NCBI GenBank assembly: GCA_963814375.1
Contig: CAWFCQ010000006.1
Coordinates: 96,001-160,000 of the forward strand
DNA from: an uncultured Chloroflexia bacterium
Lineage (GTDB): Bacteria; Chloroflexota; Limnocylindria; QHBO01
Direction: 5' to 3'
DNA length: 64,000 bases
Every line of letters starts with the position of its first letter. The stretch's first letter is position 1. Position numbers and translations under genes: made by a program. The notes below the pieces were generated by a model. It saw only the letters and a list, made by a program, of their open reading frames with translations. It had not been told where the DNA came from and did not search any database. Below are positions 45,563 through 56,185 of the stretch, one piece after another.

Positions 45563-46477
45563 TCAGCGGTCGCGGGCGAGTCGCAGCTCGAGCGCCTGGT
45601 CGACGCTGAAGTCGACGAGACCCAGCGCGTCGGCGGTGACCTCGAGAAGCGCGCCGGTCGGAGCCAGTCCAATGAGCTCGCAGTGATCGACGTCGGTGCC
45701 GGCCTCGCGTGCCAGGCGTCGGACCTCGCGGACCACGTCAGGGATCCCGGTCCGCTGCCAGTCCACGAGGTTGGTGCTGACCTGGGCCATCGGCGCCTGG
45801 CCGGGGTTCTCGAGCAGGACGCCCATGGCCTGCACGGCCGGCATCCCGCCGGACGACTCGCGGATCGCGTTTGCGATCTTGATGGCCACTGCCAGCTGGT
45901 CGGTGCGCAGGTTGATGTTGAACGCGATGAGCGGCCGCCGGGCGCCGACCGCCACGGCCCCGCCGCGCGGATGGATGCGCGCCGGGCCGAAGTCCGGCGC
46001 GCGCTCCGGGTTCGTCGCGATCTCGTCCCGGATCGCCTCGTACTGCCCGCGCCGGACATCGGCGAGCCGCCGGCGGGCCGGCCGCAACGCGGCCTCGCCG
46101 TACAGGTACACCGGGAGCTCGAAGCGGCCCGCGATCTGCTCTCCGAATCGGCGCGCCAGGTCGACGCATTCCTCGATGCGCGTGGTGCCGAGCGGCACGA
46201 ACGGGATCACGTCGACCGCCCCGATTCGCGGGTGGGCGCCAACGTGCTGCTCCATGTCGATGAGCTCGAGCGCTCGCCCGACGCCCGCGGTGGCGGCACG
46301 CACCACCGGTTCGGCCGAGCCGGCGAAGGTGACGACGCTGCGGTTGTGCGTCTCGTCGCGGGAGTGGTCGAGCACCGTCACCCCATCGATCTGGCCGATG
46401 GCGCCCACGATCTCGTCGACGACGTCGGCGCGGCGGCCCTCGCTGAAGTTCGGGACGCATTCGATCAGGCCAGGCAC
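45563..46477 (-). CDS. ftcD: Glutamate formimidoyltransferase (FTCD transferase domain)
   Basis: LIECVPNFSEGRR, HNRSVVT, HPRIGAVDVIPFVP, RRGQYE, PDFGP, QVSTNL. Confidence 0.92.
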   Translation of the reverse strand: MPGLIECVPNFSEGRRADVVDEIVGAIGQIDGVTVLDHSRDETHNRSVVTFAGSAEPVVRAATAGVGRALELIDMEQHVGAHPRIGAVDVIPFVPLGTTRIEECVDLARRFGEQIAGRFELPVYLYGEAALRPARRRLADVRRGQYEAIRDEIATNPERAPDFGPARIHPRGGAVAVGARRPLIAFNINLRTDQLAVAIKIANAIRESSGGMPAVQAMGVLLENPGQAPMAQVSTNLVDWQRTGIPDVVREVRRLAREAGTDVDHCELIGLAPTGALLEVTADALGLVDFSVDQALELRLARDR

Positions 46478-46543
46478 GCGGCTGATGCTACCGCTCCGCG
46501 TCACCGAGGGATGGCGTCTCGTCCCGATGCTACGGTTCGCTCC

Positions 46544-47381
46544 ATGCCCCCCGCTGGGACGCTCTACCTCGTCGCCGTGCCGATCGGCAATCCCGATGAC
46601 CTGAGCGCGCGCGCGCGCGACGTGCTCGGAAGCGTGGGCGTCGTCGCCGCCGAGGACACGAGGCACTTCGCCACGCTCGCCCGCCACCACGACATCAGGA
46701 TGCGCGCCGTCAGCTACCACGACCACAACGAACGCACCCGCTCCGATGAGCTTCTGGCGCGGCTCGGCGCCGGCGAGGACGTCGCGCTCGTCAGCGACGC
46801 TGGCACCCCGCTGGTCAGCGACCCCGGCTACCGCCTGGTGCGCGCTGCGATCGAGGCCGGCATCGCGGTCGTCAGCGTTCCCGGACCCTCGGCGGTGACA
46901 ACGGCGCTGGCCGCGTCCGGGCTGCCGCCACACCCGTTCCGATTCATCGGATTCCTGCCCCGCACCGCGGCGGCGCGCCGGGCCGCCCTCGCGGAGGTCT
47001 CGACCGACGAGGCCACGCTCATCATGTTCGAGGCTCCGCGACGCGTGACCAGAGCGATCGGTGACGCGATTGAGGTCCTCGGCGACCGGCCGGCATGCCT
47101 TGCCCGCAACCTGACCAAGCGACACGAGCGCTACCAGCGCGGGCCGCTGTCCGTTCTGCTGGGTGAGCTGGTGCTGGAGGCAGAGGTGCGTGGAGAGTGC
47201 ACTCTTCTCATCGGCGGAGCCGGCGACGCTCGTTCGCCAGACCGACGATGCCGAGGCCGACGCCCGTCTGCTTCTGCGCGGCGGCGCTCCGGCCCGCGCG
47301 ATCCAGGACCTCCTCGTCCAGCGCCACGGCCTCTCCAAGCGTGAGGCGTACGCCATGGTCATCGCGGTGCGAGACGGATGA
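46544..47381 (+). CDS. rsmI: 16S rRNA (cytidine1402-2'-O)-methyltransferase, with a frameshift near 47230
   Basis: LYLVAVPIGNPDD, AAEDTR, LVSDAGTPLVSDPG, PGPSA, RGECTL; the C-terminus continues in another frame. Confidence 0.9.
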
Positions 47382-48175
47382 CGGCGGAGATCGTCGAGCG
47401 CGTCCGCCGCTCGGCCCGTTATCGCGACGTGGATGCGTCCATGCTCGAGCGTCTCGCCGAGGAGGAGCTATCGCGATCTCGGTCGATCGACGATGCGGTG
47501 AAGCGCGTGAAGCGGCGCCTGCACCAGGCGGTCGGCGCCTTCCAGGGCGGCACCCGCGACGCGCGTCCGGAGCGGTTGTGGACCGGCGACTTCGCCGATC
47601 CTGCCTTCCGGGCCGCATGCGCTGCCGCGCTCCACGGCCACGCCTCCGCCCGCGAGCGAGTCCCGCACCTCGACCGGTTCTACGCCGGAATCTGGGCCCT
47701 GACCGGGACGCCGTCGCGCGTGCTGGATGTCGGCTGCGGCCTCGCCCCGCTGGCGCTGCCGTGGATGGGCATCGGCGACGCGACCTACGTCGCGGTCGAC
47801 GCCGACCGACACGCACTCGAGCGGGTGCGCGAGTTCATGGAGGCCGTCGGACAGCCGCATCTCGTGCGAGCGGCCGACGTCGTGACCGAGCCGCCGCGCG
47901 ACGAGGTCGACGTCGCGCTGCTGCTCAAGCTGGTGCCGACGCTCGACCGCCAGGACGCCGAGGCGGCAAGCCGGGTCGTGCGGCAGCTTCATGCTCGCCA
48001 CGCGGTCGTGACCTTCCCGGCCAGGTCGCTGGGCGGGCACGCGCGAGGCATGGAGCGGACCTACCGGGACCGCCTCGAGCGGCTGGTGGCCGACTCCGGT
48101 CGCGTGAGCGCGGTCGCGGAGGCATCGGTCCCGAACGAGCTCGTCTTCGTGCTCAGCCTGGATGCCAATGGCTGA
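47378..48175 (+). CDS. 16S rRNA (guanine1405-N7)-methyltransferase, FmrO/Sgm/ArmA/Rmt family
   Basis: VKRRLHQAVGAF, HASARERVPHLDRFY, LDVGCGLAPLALPW, LLLKLVPTL, VVTFPARSLGG..RGM..TY, NELVFV. Confidence 0.85.
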   Translation: MTAEIVERVRRSARYRDVDASMLERLAEEELSRSRSIDDAVKRVKRRLHQAVGAFQGGTRDARPERLWTGDFADPAFRAACAAALHGHASARERVPHLDRFYAGIWALTGTPSRVLDVGCGLAPLALPWMGIGDATYVAVDADRHALERVREFMEAVGQPHLVRAADVVTEPPRDEVDVALLLKLVPTLDRQDAEAASRVVRQLHARHAVVTFPARSLGGHARGMERTYRDRLERLVADSGRVSAVAEASVPNELVFVLSLDANG

Positions 48176-49253
48176 GCCGCTCGCCACAGGTCGTGGGACG
48201 CTGGCCGTGCCGGTTTTCCTGCCCGACGCGACGCGTGCCGGCGTGCGCGGCGTGAGCAGCGAGGACCTGCGCGGCATAGGGGTCGAGGCGCTCGTGGTCA
48301 ACGCCTTTCACCTGCTGCGCCGTCCCGGGGCGCGCGTGGTGCAGGCGGCGGGCGGCGTCCATCGGTTCATGGACTGGGACCGGCCGATCCTGTCGGACTC
48401 CGGCGGCTTCCAGGTCTGGAGCCTGATTCGCCAGGATCCGAGCCGTGGGGTCATCCGCGACAACGAGGTGATCTTTCGCGAGCCGACGACCGGCGAGAAG
48501 TGGAACCTCACGCCGGAGCGCGTGATCCAGCTCCAGCTCCAGCTGGGATCCGACGTCATCGTGTGCCTGGACGATCCGACCTCCGCCGATGACCCCGAGG
48601 TGGAGCAGGAGCGCTCGGTCGAGCGGACGGTGCGCTGGGCGCGTCGCAGCCGCGAGGAGCTCGATCGTCAGGTCGCGGGCCGCCGAGACGGCGCCGCGCC
48701 GCGCATCTTCGGCGTCGTGCAGGGTGGCATGGTCGAGAGCCTTCGACGTCAGTGCGCGGCAGAGCTGGCCGCCATCGGCTTCGATGGCTACGGCTTCGGC
48801 GGTTGGCCGATCGGAGCGGACGGATCTCTGCTGGCGGATGCGCTGCGCTGGACAGCCGATGCGTTGCCGACCTCAGCGCCGAAGCACGCCCTTGGCATCG
48901 GGCGCCCGGACCACGTCGTGGCAACCTTCGCGCTCGGCTACTCGGCCTTCGACTGCGTGCTGCCCACGCGGGATGCGCGCCACGGCCGGTTGTATGCCTT
49001 CCGGCCGGGTCACGCGGGCCGGCGGCCGGCGCCGGGAGATGACTTCTACCGTGCGGTCCGCATCCACGACGCGCGCTACCGGGTCGACCACGAGCCGATC
49101 GAGGAGGGCTGTGACTGCCCGCTCTGCGCGCGCCATACGGCGGCCTACCTCCACCACCTGTTCAAGGTTGGCGACCGATCGGCGGAGCGGCTGGCCACGC
49201 TCCACAACCTGCGGTTCTACGTCCGCCTGTTCGAGCTCCTGCGCGAGCCCTAG
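48168..49253 (+). CDS. tgt: tRNA-guanine transglycosylase family protein, divergent
   Basis: DSGGFQ, FGVVQGG, FDCVLPTR, Zn site CDCPLC...HN. Confidence 0.88.
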   Translation: MAEPLATGRGTLAVPVFLPDATRAGVRGVSSEDLRGIGVEALVVNAFHLLRRPGARVVQAAGGVHRFMDWDRPILSDSGGFQVWSLIRQDPSRGVIRDNEVIFREPTTGEKWNLTPERVIQLQLQLGSDVIVCLDDPTSADDPEVEQERSVERTVRWARRSREELDRQVAGRRDGAAPRIFGVVQGGMVESLRRQCAAELAAIGFDGYGFGGWPIGADGSLLADALRWTADALPTSAPKHALGIGRPDHVVATFALGYSAFDCVLPTRDARHGRLYAFRPGHAGRRPAPGDDFYRAVRIHDARYRVDHEPIEEGCDCPLCARHTAAYLHHLFKVGDRSAERLATLHNLRFYVRLFELLREP

Positions 49254-50413
49254 CCGTGCGCCGCCGCCTGCGCGGCGTCCTCGCGGCCCAGCGTGTCCGG
49301 GTCCACGTGCCGCGCCCGCGCCAGGCGCTCCGTCAGGAGCTGGAGCGCGATGGCACCTTCGAGCAGCGGTCCGGCGAGGCCCACGACACGGCTCCCCCGC
49401 GGCAGCACGAGCCGCCCGGCGGGGGTCTCCGCCTCCGGGACGTCGCCGTCGAGGTCGTGGGCGACGATGCCGGCGGTCGGGACGCCGAGGTCGGCTGCCG
49501 CGCGTCGCAGCCGTCCGGCCCGTTCGGCCGCGAGGCCGGTTGCAGCGACCGGATCGGCCTGGATGACGATCAGCCCGGTCCAGCGCGTCGCCGCCGCCAG
49601 GTGGCCGTGGAGAACCGTTTCGAGCTCGTGCGCGGTAGCCGGAAGGCGGGCGCCCTCCTCGACCTTCAGCGCGAGCTCGCGCGCCGATATGTGATCCGCG
49701 CCCGTGCCGGCCACGAGGAGGCGATCGCAGCCCGACAGCGCGGCAGCCACCCCGGCCGCGGCCCGCGTGTCGCTCGCGCCGTCGATGGCCGACCGAATGG
49801 CCACGGCGTCGGGCCGCGCTCCACGCAACCGGGCCGCCAGCACCGCGCCCACCGTCAGCGGCGCGAGGTAGCCGATGGTGTGGCACCAGCTCTGGTCCTG
49901 CTCCTCGGTCCGCACCACGATCCGGGCGATTCGCGCGCCCGGCGATCCATCCCCGACGGTGATGAGCGCGGTCTGCGCGCCCGCGGCTCGCGCCGCGTGG
50001 ATCGCCTCGTTGGTGACCGTGGTTCCGCCCTCGTGCGAGATGGCGACCAGTACGCCGGCGGCTGGCGGCAGGCGGGCGGCCTCGAGGGCCGGAATGGACC
50101 GCGGCCGGCGCGCGAGATCTCCGCCGAGCGCCTCTCCGAGCATGGCGGCGATCCCAAGCGCGGCGTGCTCCGAGCTGCCGCATCCGGTGAGGATGATCGG
50201 CTCACCCGCGGCGTGGGCGGCGCGGATGGCCTCCTCCAGCGCTGCCATCGGTTCGTCGCGCGCGAGGCGGCGGACCAGCCGTTCCGCGACGGCCGGCTCG
50301 ACGGCGATCATCTCCGTCATCGCATAGGGCGGGCGCGCGCGGAAGCGGGGCATCTCCGATGGCGCCCACGGGTCTGGCGCGCCGGGCAGCGGTGCGGCCT
50401 GCGTGGGTTTCAC
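49250..50413 (-). CDS. SIS-domain protein (GlmS/FrlB/AgaS-like sugar-phosphate isomerase or deaminase)
   Basis: GCGSSEHA, ISHEGGT, ARELALKVEE, ETVLHG. Confidence 0.82.
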   Translation of the reverse strand: MKPTQAAPLPGAPDPWAPSEMPRFRARPPYAMTEMIAVEPAVAERLVRRLARDEPMAALEEAIRAAHAAGEPIILTGCGSSEHAALGIAAMLGEALGGDLARRPRSIPALEAARLPPAAGVLVAISHEGGTTVTNEAIHAARAAGAQTALITVGDGSPGARIARIVVRTEEQDQSWCHTIGYLAPLTVGAVLAARLRGARPDAVAIRSAIDGASDTRAAAGVAAALSGCDRLLVAGTGADHISARELALKVEEGARLPATAHELETVLHGHLAAATRWTGLIVIQADPVAATGLAAERAGRLRRAAADLGVPTAGIVAHDLDGDVPEAETPAGRLVLPRGSRVVGLAGPLLEGAIALQLLTERLARARHVDPDTLGREDAAQAAAHG

Positions 50414-50927: not shown

Positions 50928-52607
50928 TCAGGCTTCGGGGGCCATCGGGATGCGCACGCCGCGGTCGCGAGCGACCTCGAGGGCTCGCTCGTAGCCGGCA
51001 TCGGCATGGCGCAGCACGCCCATCCCGGGATCGGTGGTCAGCACGCGATCGAGGCGCGCGGAAGCCTCGGGCGACCCGTCGGCCACGACCACCATCCCGG
51101 CATGAAGGCTGTAGCCGATGCCGACGCCGCCTCCGTGATGGAAGCTGACCCAGGTCGCCCCCGCCGCGGTGTTGACCATCGCGTTCAGGATCGGCCAGTC
51201 GGCGATCGCGTCCGAGCCATCGCGCATCGCCTCGGTTTCGCGGTAGGGGCTGGCGACCGACCCCGCGTCGAGATGGTCGCGGCCGATCACGATCGGCGCG
51301 CTGACCTCGCCGGACGCGACGAGGTCGTTGATGGCAGCACCCGCCCGGGCGCGATCGCCGTACCCGAGCCAGCAGATCCGCGCCGGGAGTCCCTGCACCG
51401 GCACCTTCTCGGCCGCTAGGCGCAGCCAGCGCTGGAGGCCATCGTCGTCGGGAAAGAGCTCGGCCAGGGCGCGGTCGATGCGCGCGATGTCGGCGACGTC
51501 GCCTGACAGCGCGGCGACGCGGAATGGCCCCTTGCCCTCGCAGAACAGCGGGCGGATGAAGGCCGGGACGAAGCCGGGGAAGTCGAAGGCGTTGGCGACG
51601 CCGGCCTCCTTCGCAAACGCCCGGATGTTGTTGCCGTAGTCGAAGGTCACCGCTCCCGCGCTCTGGAAGGCGAGCATGGCTCGAACGTGCTCGGCCATCG
51701 ATCGCTTCGAACGGCGGACGTAGTCCTCCGGATCGCTGGTGCGCAATGCCAGCGCATCGGCCAGGGGCAGCCCGCTGGGAACGTAGCCGTTGAGCGGGTC
51801 GTGGGCGCTGGTCTGGTCGGTGACGAGGTCGGGGCGCCAGCCGCGCCGGACCAGCTCGGGCAGGACGTCGGCGGCATTGCCGATGAGCGCCACGGAGCGG
51901 CCGATGCGCTCCTCGCGCCAGCCATCGACCATGGCGACCGCGTCGTCGACCGTATCGGTCAGCTCGTCGACGTAGGCGACGTCGAGGCGACGGCGAGCGC
52001 GTGCCTCGTCGACCTCGACCACGATCGCGGCTCCGCCGTTCATGGTGATCGCCAGCGGCTGCGCGCCCCCCATGCCGCCGAGCCCGGCGGTGATCGTCGC
52101 CGTTCCGGCGAGCGTGCCGCCGAAGTGCTGCCGCGCCGCTTCTGCGAAGGTCTCGTACGTGCCCTGGATGATTCCCTGCGTGGCGATGTAGATCCACGAG
52201 CCCGCGGTCATCTGCCCGTACATCGTCAGACCGGCGCGCTCGAGCTCGCGGAAGTTCTCCCATGTCGCCCAGTGCGGCACGAGGTTCGCGTTTGCGATGA
52301 GGACGCGAGGCGCATCGGTCGTGGTGCGGAAGACGCCGACCGGCTTGCCCGACGCGACGAGCAGCGTCTCGTCATTCTCGAGCCGCCGGAGCTCGGCAAC
52401 GATCGCGTCGAAGGCCTCCCAGCTCCGTGCGGCGCGGCCGGTGCCGCCGTACACGACGAGGTGGTCCGGATCCTCGGCCACGTCGGGGTCGAGGTTGTTC
52501 ATCAGCATTCGCAGCGCCGCCTCCTGCTGCCAGCCCTTGCAGGAGAGCTCGGTGCCCCTCGGCGCGCGGACCATGCGGGGACCGCTCCGGGGTTCGACCG
52601 CCGTCAT
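50928..52607 (-). CDS. hutU: Urocanate hydratase
   Basis: [52 protein letters not shown]. Confidence 0.95.
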
Positions 52608-52619
52608 CCGTCGATCATA

Positions 52620-53150
52620 GGGGCGGGAGGGCACCGTGGAGGCATAGCGCCCGTCGGCGGTTTCGAGCAGGTGCGTGAGCTCGACGTCGCGAACGTGCGG
52701 ACGGGGTCGCGTCGGTCCATTCGGTCCCGTCATCAGAGCGAGACGTGGCCCGCGCGCGGTGGCGGGGGTCCGACACGCTGCGGGCCTCATCCTCGTAGAA
52801 GTGCCAACCGCATGAGGCCACCCGACCACGCGATGAGGTCCCCGAGCACGTAGCGCATGCCGGCTCCGCGAATGCGCTGCCTGTGCCAGTTCTGCGGGAT
52901 CTGCGCGGCGGCGTCTGCCGAGGGCGTCGGAGCCGAGTCGACGGACGCGGGGGGCGAGCTCCGCAGTCGCCTGCGGCGATGTCGGGATCGTCGCCGACTG
53001 GCGGGCTGGCGGGGCTCTGGCGGCGTGCCGTCGTCGTCGCGCGTGAACAGCACGGCGACGACGATCGCACGAGCAGGATGCGCCCGCGGCCGCGGCGATC
53101 AGAGGCCACCGGGTCGGTGTCGCTCGCTCGGGAGCGCGTCGCCTCACGCG
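52620..53150 (-). pseudogene. Garbled fragment of a secreted protein gene
   Basis: Fragments [51 protein letters not shown] in different frames. Confidence 0.35.
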
Positions 53151-53904: not shown

Positions 53905-54660
53905 TCAGTCCTCCCCGAACGGGTTCGGTCGCTTCGGCTTGTCAGGCGGCAGCTTGAAGAACTCCTCCGCGTCGGCCTTCGGTGGCATCGGCAGGGGCCA
54001 GTCGTCACCCTCATCGGGCGCGCTCGCGCGGATCAGGTCGGTCCACGCTTCGGCATCGGTCTCGCCGGAAAGCTCGCGCCGGTAGACGGGGAAGTGCTCG
54101 TCACCGGCGACGCGCTCGAAGCCGGCGGCCTCGTACACCGATGCCGGGCCCGGCGACGGCAGCCATGGGTCGGCAACACCCTCGGGATAGGCCTCGACGG
54201 CGGTGATTCCGCGTCGGTCGAGCTCGTCACACAGCGTGGCGAGCAACGAGGTCGCCGTCTCGTGGCGCTCCTCGGCCTGCATGGAAGGAGGGACCTGGAG
54301 GCAGGTGATCACCCATGGCGCCGGCGACTCGGGCAGCTCGGGGTATCGGTCGCGAATGTCGACCGCCCGCGGGTAGGCGCTCAGCGGGCCGAACTGGGCG
54401 TATCCCGCGGCGGTGCGAGCAACGGCGTCGGTCCGATAGGCCAGCAACGCATAGGAGCCGGCGAGCGCCCGACCTGCCAGCAATCGGCCGCGCTTCAGGC
54501 TCTCCCGGGCCGCCCCGCCGGCGCCCTCCTCGGGCGCGTCCCGCCCCCCATCGAGCCGCTCCCAGTAGTCGCAGGTCTGGCAGCGTGCTCCCGGCTGAGC
54601 CGGGGCCGGGATCTCGTCGAAGCTCGCCTCGTCCACGAGGGCGAACTCGAGCTCAGCCAC
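53905..54660 (-). CDS. GNAT-like protein with a CxxCxxW motif
   Basis: CQTCDYWE, GYAQFGP..YPR, VITCLQV, AVEAYP, YEAAGF; start overlaps the hutH stop. Confidence 0.7.
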   Translation of the reverse strand: MAELEFALVDEASFDEIPAPAQPGARCQTCDYWERLDGGRDAPEEGAGGAARESLKRGRLLAGRALAGSYALLAYRTDAVARTAAGYAQFGPLSAYPRAVDIRDRYPELPESPAPWVITCLQVPPSMQAEERHETATSLLATLCDELDRRGITAVEAYPEGVADPWLPSPGPASVYEAAGFERVAGDEHFPVYRRELSGETDAEAWTDLIRASAPDEGDDWPLPMPPKADAEEFFKLPPDKPKRPNPFGED

Positions 54661-56185
54661 TGGCCCGCTGGGTCGCGCCATTGGCGAGGAGGTCGCCGGC
54701 GTGGAGCAGCTCAGCGACGGCGGCGATGTCGGGCGCCGGCGGCCGGTCGGCGTCGAGATGTGCCACGCGTGCCCGGATGGCGGCGTGCGCATGCGCGACC
54801 CCGACGCCGGGGCGCATCGGCGTGCGGAAGTCGATGCCCTGGGCTGCGCACAGCGCCTCGATGGCGAGCACCTGTTCCGCCCGTTCCGTGGAGGCGCGCA
54901 GATGGAGAGCGCTCGTGGCGCCCATGCTCACGTGGTCCTCCTGGTTCGCGCTCGTCGGGATCGTGTCGACCGAGGACGGGTGGGAGAGCGTCTGGAGCTC
55001 GTTAACGAGGGCGGCGGCGGTGTAGTGAGCGATCATCAGCCCGCTCTCGACGCCGGGCCGCTCGGCGAGGAAGGCCGGCAGGCCGGAGAGGTTGGCGTCA
55101 ACGAGGCGCGCCGTCCGCCGCTCCGAGATGGATGCCAGCTCCGTCACCGCGATCGTCGCGTAGTCGAGCGCCAGCGCGAGCGGCTCGCCGTGGAAGTTCC
55201 CGCCGGAGAGGACTTCGCCGCCGGGCAGCACGAGCGGGTTGTCGGTCGCGGAGTTGATCTCGACGGCGAGGACGCGCTCCAGCTCGGCCAGCGCGTCGCG
55301 GACCGCGCCGTGGACCTGCGGCATGCAGCGCAGGCTGTAGGCGTCCTGCACCCGGTGCTCGGTGTCGGAGCGGTGCGAGTCCCAGATCTCGCTGTCGGCC
55401 ATCAGCTCGCGGAGGTGCCGTGCCGAGGCGATCTGGCCGGGGTGCGGTCGAGCCGCGACGAGGCGCTCGTCGAAGGCGGCGCCCGTCCCGAGCATCGCCT
55501 CCAGGCTCATGGCGCCGATGACATCGGCCGTCAGCGCCAGCCGCAGGGCGTCGTGGTGCGCGAGGCAGCCGATGCCCGCCATCAGCTGCGTCCCGTTGAG
55601 GAGCGCCAGGCCCTCCTTGGCGCCGAGCTCGACCGGCTCCAGGCCGGCGCGCGCCAGCGCCTCGCCGCCGCCGCCCGGCCCGGCGCCATCCACCGTCGCC
55701 TCGCCCTCGCCGATGAGCACGAGCGCGATGTGGGCCAGCGGCGCCAGATCGCCCGACGCGCCGAGGCTGCCGCGTGACGGCACCACCGGGTGCACGGCCG
55801 CGTTGAGCATCGCGGTCAGCAGCTCGACGAGGTCGGTGCGAACGCCGGAGAGCCCGACGGCGAGCGCATTGGCGCGGAGGAGGAGCATGGCCCGCACCAC
55901 CTCATCGGGCAGTGGCTCTCCCACGCCGGCGGCGTGCGACCGCACCAGGTTGCGCTGGAGCTCGGCGGTCTGGCCCGGATCGATGCGGACGTCAGCGAGA
56001 TCGCCGAAGCCTGTCGTCACGCCGTAGACCGGTGCCTCGGCCTCGACGAGGCGCTCGATCACCGCGTGCGAGGCACGCATCCGGTCGGCCGCATCGGCGT
56101 CGAGCGAGACAGGTCGCCGGCCCCGTGCGACCTCGATGACCTGGTCGATCGTGAGGTCCCGGCCGGTGAGCGGAAGGGGCGGCAT
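54653..56185 (-). CDS. hutH: Histidine ammonia-lyase
   Basis: YGVTTGFG, RSHAAGVG, GASGDLAPL (MIO motif), QDAYSLRC, NQEDHVSMG. Confidence 0.95.
   Translation of the reverse strand: MPPLPLTGRDLTIDQVIEVARGRRPVSLDADAADRMRASHAVIERLVEAEAPVYGVTTGFGDLADVRIDPGQTAELQRNLVRSHAAGVGEPLPDEVVRAMLLLRANALAVGLSGVRTDLVELLTAMLNAAVHPVVPSRGSLGASGDLAPLAHIALVLIGEGEATVDGAGPGGGGEALARAGLEPVELGAKEGLALLNGTQLMAGIGCLAHHDALRLALTADVIGAMSLEAMLGTGAAFDERLVAARPHPGQIASARHLRELMADSEIWDSHRSDTEHRVQDAYSLRCMPQVHGAVRDALAELERVLAVEINSATDNPLVLPGGEVLSGGNFHGEPLALALDYATIAVTELASISERRTARLVDANLSGLPAFLAERPGVESGLMIAHYTAAALVNELQTLSHPSSVDTIPTSANQEDHVSMGATSALHLRASTERAEQVLAIEALCAAQGIDFRTPMRPGVGVAHAHAAIRARVAHLDADRPPAPDIAAVAELLHAGDLLANGATQRASG

Follow-up and report, generated by a model that had tools for sequence, protein, structure and literature searches.

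The 64,000-nucleotide stretch analysed here, referred to as the window, covers positions 96,001 to 160,000 of contig CAWFCQ010000006.1 (assembly GCA_963814375.1). It originates from a soil member of the Chloroflexota, whose genome assembly of 2.52 Mb consists of 8 contigs, has a GC (guanine plus cytosine) content of about 70% and is 89% complete. Three plus-strand genes, which together span positions 46544–49253, form the operon under study: rsmI, a gene of the FmrO/Rmt type, and a gene of the tRNA-guanine transglycosylase (TGT) family, designated TGT2 in the following. The first (46544..47381) codes for a 16S rRNA C1402 2'-O-methyltransferase and is split by one frameshift. The second (47378..48175) codes for a 265-residue homologue of the FmrO/Rmt-family 16S rRNA (guanine1405-N7) methyltransferases, in the following named FmrO, and the third (48168..49253) for a TGT-family paralog in which Trp-Pro replaces Leu231-Ala232. 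A previous reading of the DNA that used no database searches (the sequence-only reading) had described these genes as chained by overlaps, and both overlaps can be read directly from the sequence: the ATGA at 47378..47381 places the start of FmrO on the TGA stop of rsmI, and ATGGCTGA at 48168..48175 places the start of TGT2 on the stop of FmrO. An alternative in-frame ATG for TGT2 exists at 48162; the alignments of relatives begin at residue 3, which corresponds to 48168. Of the proposed three-gene chain, linkage and overlaps have held up, whereas rsmI does not form a single open frame and the tgt gene is not the housekeeping copy.

The translation of 47378–48175 carries all four motifs that had been quoted as typical of FmrO and Sgm, namely HASARERVPHLDRFY, DVGCGLAPL, LLLKLVPTL and VVTFPARSLG. 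A search with hidden Markov models confirmed the assignment: FmrO matched the Pfam profile PF07091 over its full length (profile positions 1–255 of 255) with an E-value of 1.6e-48 and 165.8 bits (cut-off 27). The nearest solved structures are those of Sgm (PDB 3lcu, 139 bits) and 6pi9 (128.5 bits), and the only relatives found in the PDB were Sgm, RmtB, RmtC, ArmA and one further G1405 methyltransferase. The bioRxiv preprint 10.1101/712810 names thirteen RmtC residues that bind S-adenosylmethionine (SAM) or the 30S subunit or take part in catalysis: K20, R50, H54, Y60, S107, R111, D160, D188, R211, Q212, K236, R241, and M245. An RmtC sequence from a plasmid record served as reference and was aligned to FmrO of the window, where the equivalent residues are, in the same order, R14, K45, H49, F55, S90, R94, D141, D167, R191, Q192, R216, H221, and M225. 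Identical are the positions H54, S107, R111, D160, D188, R211, Q212, and M245, and the positions K20, R50, and K236 are conservatively occupied by basic residues. Position Y60 contains a Phe, as it does in RmtD, RmtG, and RmtF. Taken as a set, the residues on which SAM binding and function depend in RmtC are retained.

The likeness of FmrO to Sgm, RmtB (PDB 3frh), RmtC (6cn0), and ArmA (3fzg) thus comprises the full-length match, which includes the N-terminal 30S-binding domain, the SAM-binding equivalents of R111, D160, D188, and Q212, and the activity-critical equivalents of H54 and M245. In contrast to these enzymes, FmrO of the window is a putative methylase, is chromosomal and vertically inherited in a lineage of non-producers, and is only 24–37% identical to the clinical enzymes. 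The 16S rRNA of the same genome contains the canonical target GTACACACCGCCCGTCA around C1402 and G1405. To judge from its residues, FmrO of the window is a credible G1405 methylase. Two unusual proteins were encountered among the homologues. P0160, a metagenomic protein of 907 residues, combines an N-terminal SMC_N/AAA ATPase part with a full FmrO domain (residues 654–904); the fusion may be genuine or may have arisen from faulty gene calling. The apparent FmrO-TGT fusion protein P0245 was discarded, as it is a frameshift-ridden open reading frame (ORF) call from the same clade, like P0127.

The product of the third gene matched the Pfam profile PF01702 with an E-value of 7e-98 and TIGR00430, the equivalog of the Tgt enzyme for queuosine at tRNA position 34 (Q34), with 315.1 bits, which is marginally above the cut-off of 306.75. 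It is 33–40% identical to solved tRNA Tgt enzymes (E ~1e-71). However, a second TGT gene is present in the genome. This canonical gene (TGT1) scores 480.7 bits in Pfam compared to 327.6 bits for the copy in the window, carries the motif GGLSVGE, and directly follows queA on contig C4. TGT2 is neither linked to queA nor the single copy of its family, as would be expected of the queuosine gene. Two TGT genes, one of each kind, were also present in all five distant Chloroflexota genomes tested. Compared to the equivalogs of the other superfamily members, TGT2 reaches 24.1 bits for DpdA (NF041059, cut-off 200) and 95.2 bits for the archaeosine enzyme TgtA (cut-off 350); its likeness to both is confined to the superfamily. 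A protein atlas search yielded generic TGT clusters only.

For a comparison at the level of residues, TGT2 of the window was aligned to Tgt from Z. mobilis, and then 36 TGT2 sequences were compared with 13 TGT1 sequences; note that residue numbers were counted from the Z. mobilis alignment and that statements on the pocket rest on sequence alignment. TGT2 shares with Z. mobilis Tgt (PDB 1ozm and others) the fold family, the catalytic Asp residues, Gln203, Gly229-Gly230, and the CxCxxC...H zinc site. Across the 36 TGT2 sequences, the positions that correspond to Asp102, Asp156, Gln203, and Asp280 show no variation, and neither do three zinc ligands out of four; the fourth ligand, a Cys, is found in 35 of the sequences. 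TGT2 differs from bacterial Tgt in that Leu231-Ala232 is replaced by Trp-Pro in 36/36 sequences, in the loss of Glu235, in FLPDAT instead of the FMPVGT of TGT1, in two insertions (one of 4 and one of about 13–15 residues), in the missing linkage to queA, and in that it travels with FmrO. The residues W215, P216, D22, A23, and R276 are invariant in the 36 TGT2 sequences and all 13 TGT1 sequences differ at all five positions; D271 and R276 are specific to TGT2. The column of Glu235 contains an Ala in the TGT2 of the window and is variable across TGT2, whereas it is Glu in 13/13 TGT1. At residue 139 (48576–48578), which corresponds to Cys158 in Tgt from Z. mobilis, the TGT2 of the window has a Pro where 35 of the 36 TGT2 sequences have a Cys, which is either a peculiarity of the strain or a sequencing error.

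According to PMC3660597, the peptide between positions 231 and 232 flips together with Glu235 and offers either its NH group to N7 of guanine or its carbonyl group to preQ1. TGT2 has neither Leu231/Ala232 nor a conserved Glu235, and because a proline at position 232 has no NH group to offer, the reading of N7 appears to be lost in its pocket. In a quick IQ-TREE analysis, with Limnocylindria TGT1 as the only outgroup, TGT2 and TGT1 were split by a long branch with 100% support in the Shimodaira-Hasegawa-like approximate likelihood ratio test (SH-aLRT). By its residues and its position in this tree, TGT2 is a distinct paralog and not the queuosine Q34 enzyme, and we take it to be a competent transglycosylase on the strength of its retained catalytic and zinc-site residues.

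The sequence-only reading had taken the third gene for an ordinary queuosine tgt and the cluster for a translation-modification operon that acts on both rRNA and tRNA anticodons. The TIGR00430 score and the fact that plasmid homologues of TGT2 are annotated as Tgt by NCBI are in line with such an assignment, which is nevertheless improbable: a better-scoring tgt adjoins queA elsewhere in the genome, the Leu231/Ala232-Glu235 switch is absent from TGT2, the branch between the two groups is long, and TGT2 is restricted to genomes that bear FmrO. The claim that this gene acts on tRNA anticodons had to be given up, as the copy in the window is a paralog with a rebuilt N7-sensing pocket that occurs only together with FmrO. 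QueC and QueF gave no match in this genome (89% complete), though queA and canonical tgt are present. The organism is thus likely to obtain preQ1, or a base related to it, by salvage, as it would have to do for any 7-deazaguanine base.

The distribution of FmrO and TGT2 was determined at several taxonomic levels; the counts include genomes flagged as unpublished (G006, G109, G118, G144, G181, G195, and G253). FmrO is present in 23 of 24 genomes of the same genus. The linkage of rsmI, fmrO, and tgt is kept in 19/19 loci of the genus, as far as the loci reach, and also recurs across Chloroflexota, so that synteny across related genomes, which the sequence-only reading had proposed to test, was indeed found. 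At the level of the family (110 genomes), FmrO was detected in 53 genomes, which belong to 6 of the 22 genera (g1, g18, g19, g25, g38, and g43), and in none of the 16 other genera; at the level of the class (151 genomes), TGT2-type matches were confined to the genera g1, g18, g19, and g25 of the family of the window. Among 301 Chloroflexota genomes, 61 contain TGT2 and 64 contain FmrO. All 61 genomes with TGT2 also have FmrO, and TGT2 without FmrO was found in 0 of the 301. The three genomes with FmrO only comprise two with gene fragments and one with a full-length gene (G434). The distance between TGT2 and FmrO is below 400 nt in 56 of these 61 genomes and 5.7–6.4 kb in two; in the other three, the genes are located on different contigs. 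A set of 80 GTDB loci, fetched by alignment to FmrO, gave a similar picture: a TGT2 with the motif GGWP lies beside FmrO in 71 loci, is missing there in 8, and one locus ends at a contig edge. Of five genomes with an FmrO that lacks a TGT2 neighbour, two have TGT2 elsewhere (in one case directly after rsmI) and three have none anywhere. Since FmrO can stand alone and TGT2 was never seen alone, the direction of the dependence is informative, and we conclude that the role of TGT2 depends on FmrO.

Four gene orders were seen, namely RsmI-FmrO-TGT2, FmrO-RsmI-TGT2, RsmI-TGT2-FmrO, and TGT2-FmrO-FmrO2-RsmF, and RsmI adjoins the FmrO-TGT2 pair in most loci. In nine loci from Anaerolineaceae a second FmrO paralog follows in tandem, and then an RsmF-type 16S 5-methylcytidine (m5C) methyltransferase. 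RsmI generates Cm1402 (2'-O-methylated C1402), and RsmF generates m5C1407 in E. coli. For Thermus, the targets of RsmF are given as C1400, C1404, and C1407 in a review (PMC13602947). The recurrent neighbours, i. e. RsmI, RsmF, the RsmH encoded on plasmids, and, putatively, the second FmrO, all act on 16S rRNA positions 1402–1407. The second FmrO of Anaerolineaceae (loci L087, L097, L098, L102, L105, L106, L108, L111, and L112; e. g. L105:6834-7739 and L105:7721-9223) is divergent and only 25–36% identical to FmrO of the window. Contigs with the RsmI-FmrO-TGT2 order typical of Limnocylindria are also filed under metagenome-assembled genomes (MAGs) of Steroidobacteraceae, Binatia, and Zixiibacteriota (L036, L038, L061), which is probably due to mis-binning. 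Two other MAGs, one of Tepidisphaeraceae (L095) and one of Vicinamibacterales (L110), contain FmrO homologues without TGT2.

These neighbours bear on a specific proposal for TGT2, according to which it would be an rRNA transglycosylase with a Trp-Pro pocket no longer able to give a hydrogen bond to N7. Such an enzyme would release the N7-methylated guanine at position 1405 (m7G1405), the glycosidic bond of which is made labile by N7 methylation, and would put a different base in its place. In chemical terms m7G is a good leaving group and accepts an aromatic residue as stacking partner, but we know of no rRNA substrate for any TGT-family enzyme. Moreover, cloned Rmt enzymes produce m7G1405 and resistance on their own, and rmtE keeps no more than a fragment of TGT2. 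The occurrence of TGT2 agrees with the proposal, since it was never found without FmrO in the 301 genomes and FmrO does occur without it; so does the clustering of RsmI, RsmH, RsmF, and a second FmrO, with their targets at 1402–1407, around it. Furthermore, the changes in TGT2 are concentrated at the peptide that reads N7 (Trp-Pro in 36/36, Glu235 not conserved; the switch as described in PMC3660597), and the catalytic residues are invariant. The pocket geometry is, however, deduced from a sequence alignment only, QueC and QueF have no match in the genome at 89% completeness, and literature on m7G1405 and transglycosylases yielded a general review only. On balance, we rate an enzyme of this kind as rather unlikely.

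A somewhat better, though still low, chance is given to TGT2 as a tRNA enzyme with a new tRNA, position, or base, which would compensate for the decoding by ribosomes that carry m7G1405 and would for this reason be kept only together with FmrO. To our knowledge, every characterised bacterial TGT of this length acts on tRNA, and TGT2 passes TIGR00430 and resembles the solved Tgt enzymes to the extent given above. Its dependence on FmrO would be explained as well, and the residues D22/A23 (FLPDAT versus FMPVGT), D271, and R276, which differ invariantly from TGT1, could retune the recognition of RNA. For known effects of Arm/Rmt methylation on fitness and translation, PMC13602947 lists Lioy 2014 among its references. 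It is less easy to reconcile with a tRNA substrate that the neighbours of TGT2 are 30S methyltransferases and not tRNA enzymes and that canonical TGT1 is already present; in addition, the data name no candidate tRNA or base.

The position of FmrO within its family was deduced from a FastTree phylogeny of 203 members, which is unrefined and of low resolution. FmrO of the window falls into a Limnocylindria clade (support 98) that is nested in a large Chloroflexota group (support 96). RmtB, RmtD, RmtG, and RmtF form a clade of their own (support 99), and both this clade and ArmA/RmtC are placed apart from the Chloroflexota group. Because of this separation, FmrO of the window is, as far as the tree resolves it, a cousin and not a direct ancestor of the clinical Rmt enzymes. 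Chloroflexi homologues are shown in a tree legend of 10.1101/712810. In the part of the 2026 review (PMC13602947) that was consulted, m7G1405 is listed only for actinomycetes and plasmids.

Sgm, the closest relative with a solved structure, comes from a producer, and members of the FmrO family have been described both in producers and on mobile elements. One could therefore suspect that FmrO serves an aminoglycoside producer for self-resistance or is a mobile resistance gene of recent acquisition. The genomic context led us to reject this explanation, which has hardly any probability left. A scan of 20 ORFs around the operon, from 32.3 to 62.6 kb, revealed no mobile-element gene and no gene of an aminoglycoside pathway (the search for an aminoglycoside cluster did not extend to the whole genome), which bears out the ordinary chromosomal setting proposed for the middle gene. 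These ORFs include argS, FTCD, HutU, HutH, FolD, and parts of an ABC transporter; four of the 20 have no Pfam match. The genome measures 2.5 Mb, no step in GC content is seen where the operon lies, and the operon recurs within the genus (23/24 genomes) as well as in several other groups of the phylum at the level of the class. The presence in the genus, the housekeeping neighbours, and the missing GC step argue for a chromosomal and vertically inherited operon.

TGT2-type genes were also detected upstream of rmtD1, rmtG, rmtE2, and rmtB2 on clinical plasmids, i. e. beside a methylase gene as in the window. On a K. pneumoniae plasmid, a gene annotated as Tgt lies upstream of rmtD1. The surroundings of rmtG consist of rsmH, Tgt, rmtG, and a fragment coding for the N-terminal 98 residues of RsmI, with overlapping genes, followed by an IS91-family element. 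A truncated Tgt precedes rmtE2, and on a Providencia plasmid Tgt and a metallophosphoesterase precede rmtB2. The plasmid-encoded Tgt proteins carry FFPDAT and GGWP. They are 46–48% identical to TGT2 of the window (336–347 bits) compared to 36% identity with TGT1 of the same genome (205–211 bits), and in the IQ-TREE phylogeny their clade is the sister of Chloroflexota TGT2. NCBI annotates these homologues as Tgt. On the rmtB2 plasmid (L132, NZ_CP118864.1, 4995–8354), the metallophosphoesterase is located between TGT2 and rmtB2, a fragment of a cation:proton antiporter gene follows, and corA lies upstream; these extra genes, too, may have been left over from the chromosome of the donor.

The array rsmH-tgt-rmtG-rsmI has been described for Klebsiella and Enterobacter plasmids (review PMC9311965, section 3.8), and in Kp13 the gene upstream of rmtG has been noted as a "putative tRNA ribosyltransferase" (PMC3904158). 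In the sections available of both papers the tgt of the array is treated as an ordinary tRNA-modification gene, and our literature search found no paper in which it is recognised as a paralog in its own right that belongs with the methylases, or in which it is given a function. The array resembles the operon in combining a C1402 methyltransferase, TGT2, a G1405 methyltransferase, and RsmI, and in its style of gene overlaps. It differs in that the plasmid loci are flanked by IS91/ISCR-type elements and IS26 in pathogens, and in that TGT2 precedes the methylase. These findings lend genuine support to the idea of an environmental reservoir or an ancestor-like form of the resistance enzymes, as the rmtG, rmtD1, rmtE2, and rmtB2 loci keep pieces of the module (TGT2, and in the case of rmtG also rsmH and the rsmI fragment). 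A direct ancestry of FmrO of the window is contradicted by the FastTree phylogeny, the comparison with the clinical enzymes having been made with this program only.

The first gene of the operon requires a separate assessment. The N-terminal product of rsmI matched TIGR00096 at residues 7–226 with 201.6 bits, well above the cut-off of 167.9, and PF00590 with an E-value of 1e-33 (46544–47344). Its frame, which begins at 46544, stops at 47342–47344. The conserved C-terminal part, which includes a helical region, uses another frame with a stop at 47379–47381, and its 52 residues are 62–80% identical to relatives, so that an intact reading frame is missing in this assembly. A comparison of the two frames of the window with seven intact relatives places the frameshift zone at 47221..47250 (plus strand), in a variable linker between ...LLIGGA and ...AEADARLL. 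In 16 of the 18 relatives that hold both parts, these share one frame. The queA gene of the same assembly (G000:C4:342043-343060; loci L024 and L025), which lies directly 5' of canonical tgt, was likewise matched in two pieces in different frames. Because of the split queA and the 16/18 relatives with a single frame, the frameshift in rsmI is probably an assembly error. None of the read contigs from four runs bridged it cleanly, and insertions and deletions near 47242–47308 stem from different relatives.

Taken together, we favour, by a narrow preponderance, the view that the three genes constitute a chromosomal decoding-site operon, in which FmrO makes m7G1405 and TGT2 acts downstream of this modification or because of it. 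The operon would be vertically inherited and would act on the 16S rRNA of the organism itself, namely on the decoding site at the top of helix 44. RsmI, provided that its gene is intact, would 2'-O-methylate C1402. Family knowledge suggests that FmrO would N7-methylate G1405 on assembled 30S subunits and that, as with Rmt and Sgm, the ribosome would thereby become insensitive to 4,6-disubstituted deoxystreptamine aminoglycosides. TGT2 would be a paralog competent for base exchange and devoid of the N7-reading peptide switch. As its substrate, RNA of the 30S decoding site is the foremost candidate, although at somewhat less than even chance, and within this option m7G1405 as the leaving base accounts for about half. 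A tRNA with a new specificity comes next, a redundant Q34 enzyme is clearly less probable, and the remaining probability belongs to something else. That TGT2 is the first rRNA base-exchange enzyme, which swaps m7G1405 or a neighbouring guanine of helix 44, is accordingly graded as unlikely. The sequence-only reading had envisaged an intrinsic decoding-centre module acting on rRNA and tRNA anticodons; the membership in the FmrO/Rmt family, the chromosomal location, and the conserved linkage have stood, whereas the Q34 role in tRNA and the universality have not.

Several observations weigh against the decoding-site operon. FmrO scores 217.8 bits on NF000466, the NCBIfam equivalog of the Rmt enzymes, and stays below its cut-off of 250. 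The critical Arg241 of RmtC is replaced by His221, the sole non-conservative change among the residues compared; this position is an Arg in 26 of 33 Chloroflexota homologues. The rsmI gene is frameshifted in this assembly, and if the frameshift were real, the strain would be without RsmI. As TGT2 narrowly passes the Q34 Tgt equivalog TIGR00430, an activity on G34 of tRNA is possible. The co-occurrence counts come from related genomes and overstate the independence of the observations. FmrO exists without TGT2, both as the full-length gene of G434 and in three of the five genomes in which FmrO lacks a TGT2 neighbour, and the clinical rmtE carries only a truncated TGT2, so that TGT2 is not needed for the methylase to work. 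Finally, the module is patchy: it was found in 64 of the 301 Chloroflexota genomes and in only some genera of the family of the window. It is therefore not essential for Chloroflexota ribosomes, and the notion of a universal housekeeping module is not tenable.

With respect to expression signals, a leaderless promoter had been postulated in front of rsmI. A consensus scan of 46300–49600 yielded 0 promoter-like and 0 terminator-like sites, which neither supports nor excludes such a promoter; the only feature noted by eye is TACGGT at 46531..46536 (plus strand), a -10-like hexamer similar to TANNNT and 7 nt 5' of the ATG of rsmI. No Shine-Dalgarno sequence was seen by eye ahead of this ATG. Of the sampled words, no more than 0.18 were found in the best-matching public read sets, and four runs gave contigs of 151–602 nt. 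Short, near-identical contigs from an RNA library cover FmrO and TGT2, so that both genes are possibly expressed, DNA carry-over being another possible source of these contigs. None of the contigs from the four runs gave evidence of co-transcription at a gene junction. Genes for the utilisation of histidine flank the operon on the opposite strand at 45563–46510 (-), 50928–53147 (-), and 54653–56185 (-); the set comprises a formiminotransferase, a urocanase, and an aromatic amino acid/histidine ammonia-lyase. The start of the formiminotransferase gene is about 33 nt from that of rsmI, and the pair is divergently arranged.

Exogenous Rmt methylases confer pan-aminoglycoside resistance on pathogens, and their sources are unknown. 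The locus described here points to the native setting of the Rmt family, namely a chromosomal operon for the modification of the decoding site, which in Chloroflexota has a wide but patchy distribution. Because the clinical rmtB2, rmtD1, rmtE2, and rmtG loci still carry neighbours from this module, the kind of donor to be sought is narrowed down. The locus further argues that Rmt-type enzymes had a role in tuning the ribosome before they had one in resistance. TGT2 represents a well-defined subfamily of TGT, catalytically intact as judged by its residues, which is characterised by the Trp-Pro switch, occurred only together with FmrO in the 301 genomes, and bears the annotation of an ordinary Tgt in those public records that were examined. 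The product of its exchange reaction could turn out to be a novel modification of RNA in the decoding centre. If rRNA were indeed the substrate of this base exchange, the native product of the module would be a further-modified nucleotide of the decoding site and not m7G, and a two-step module would have been carried intact onto the rmtD and rmtG plasmids of pathogens.

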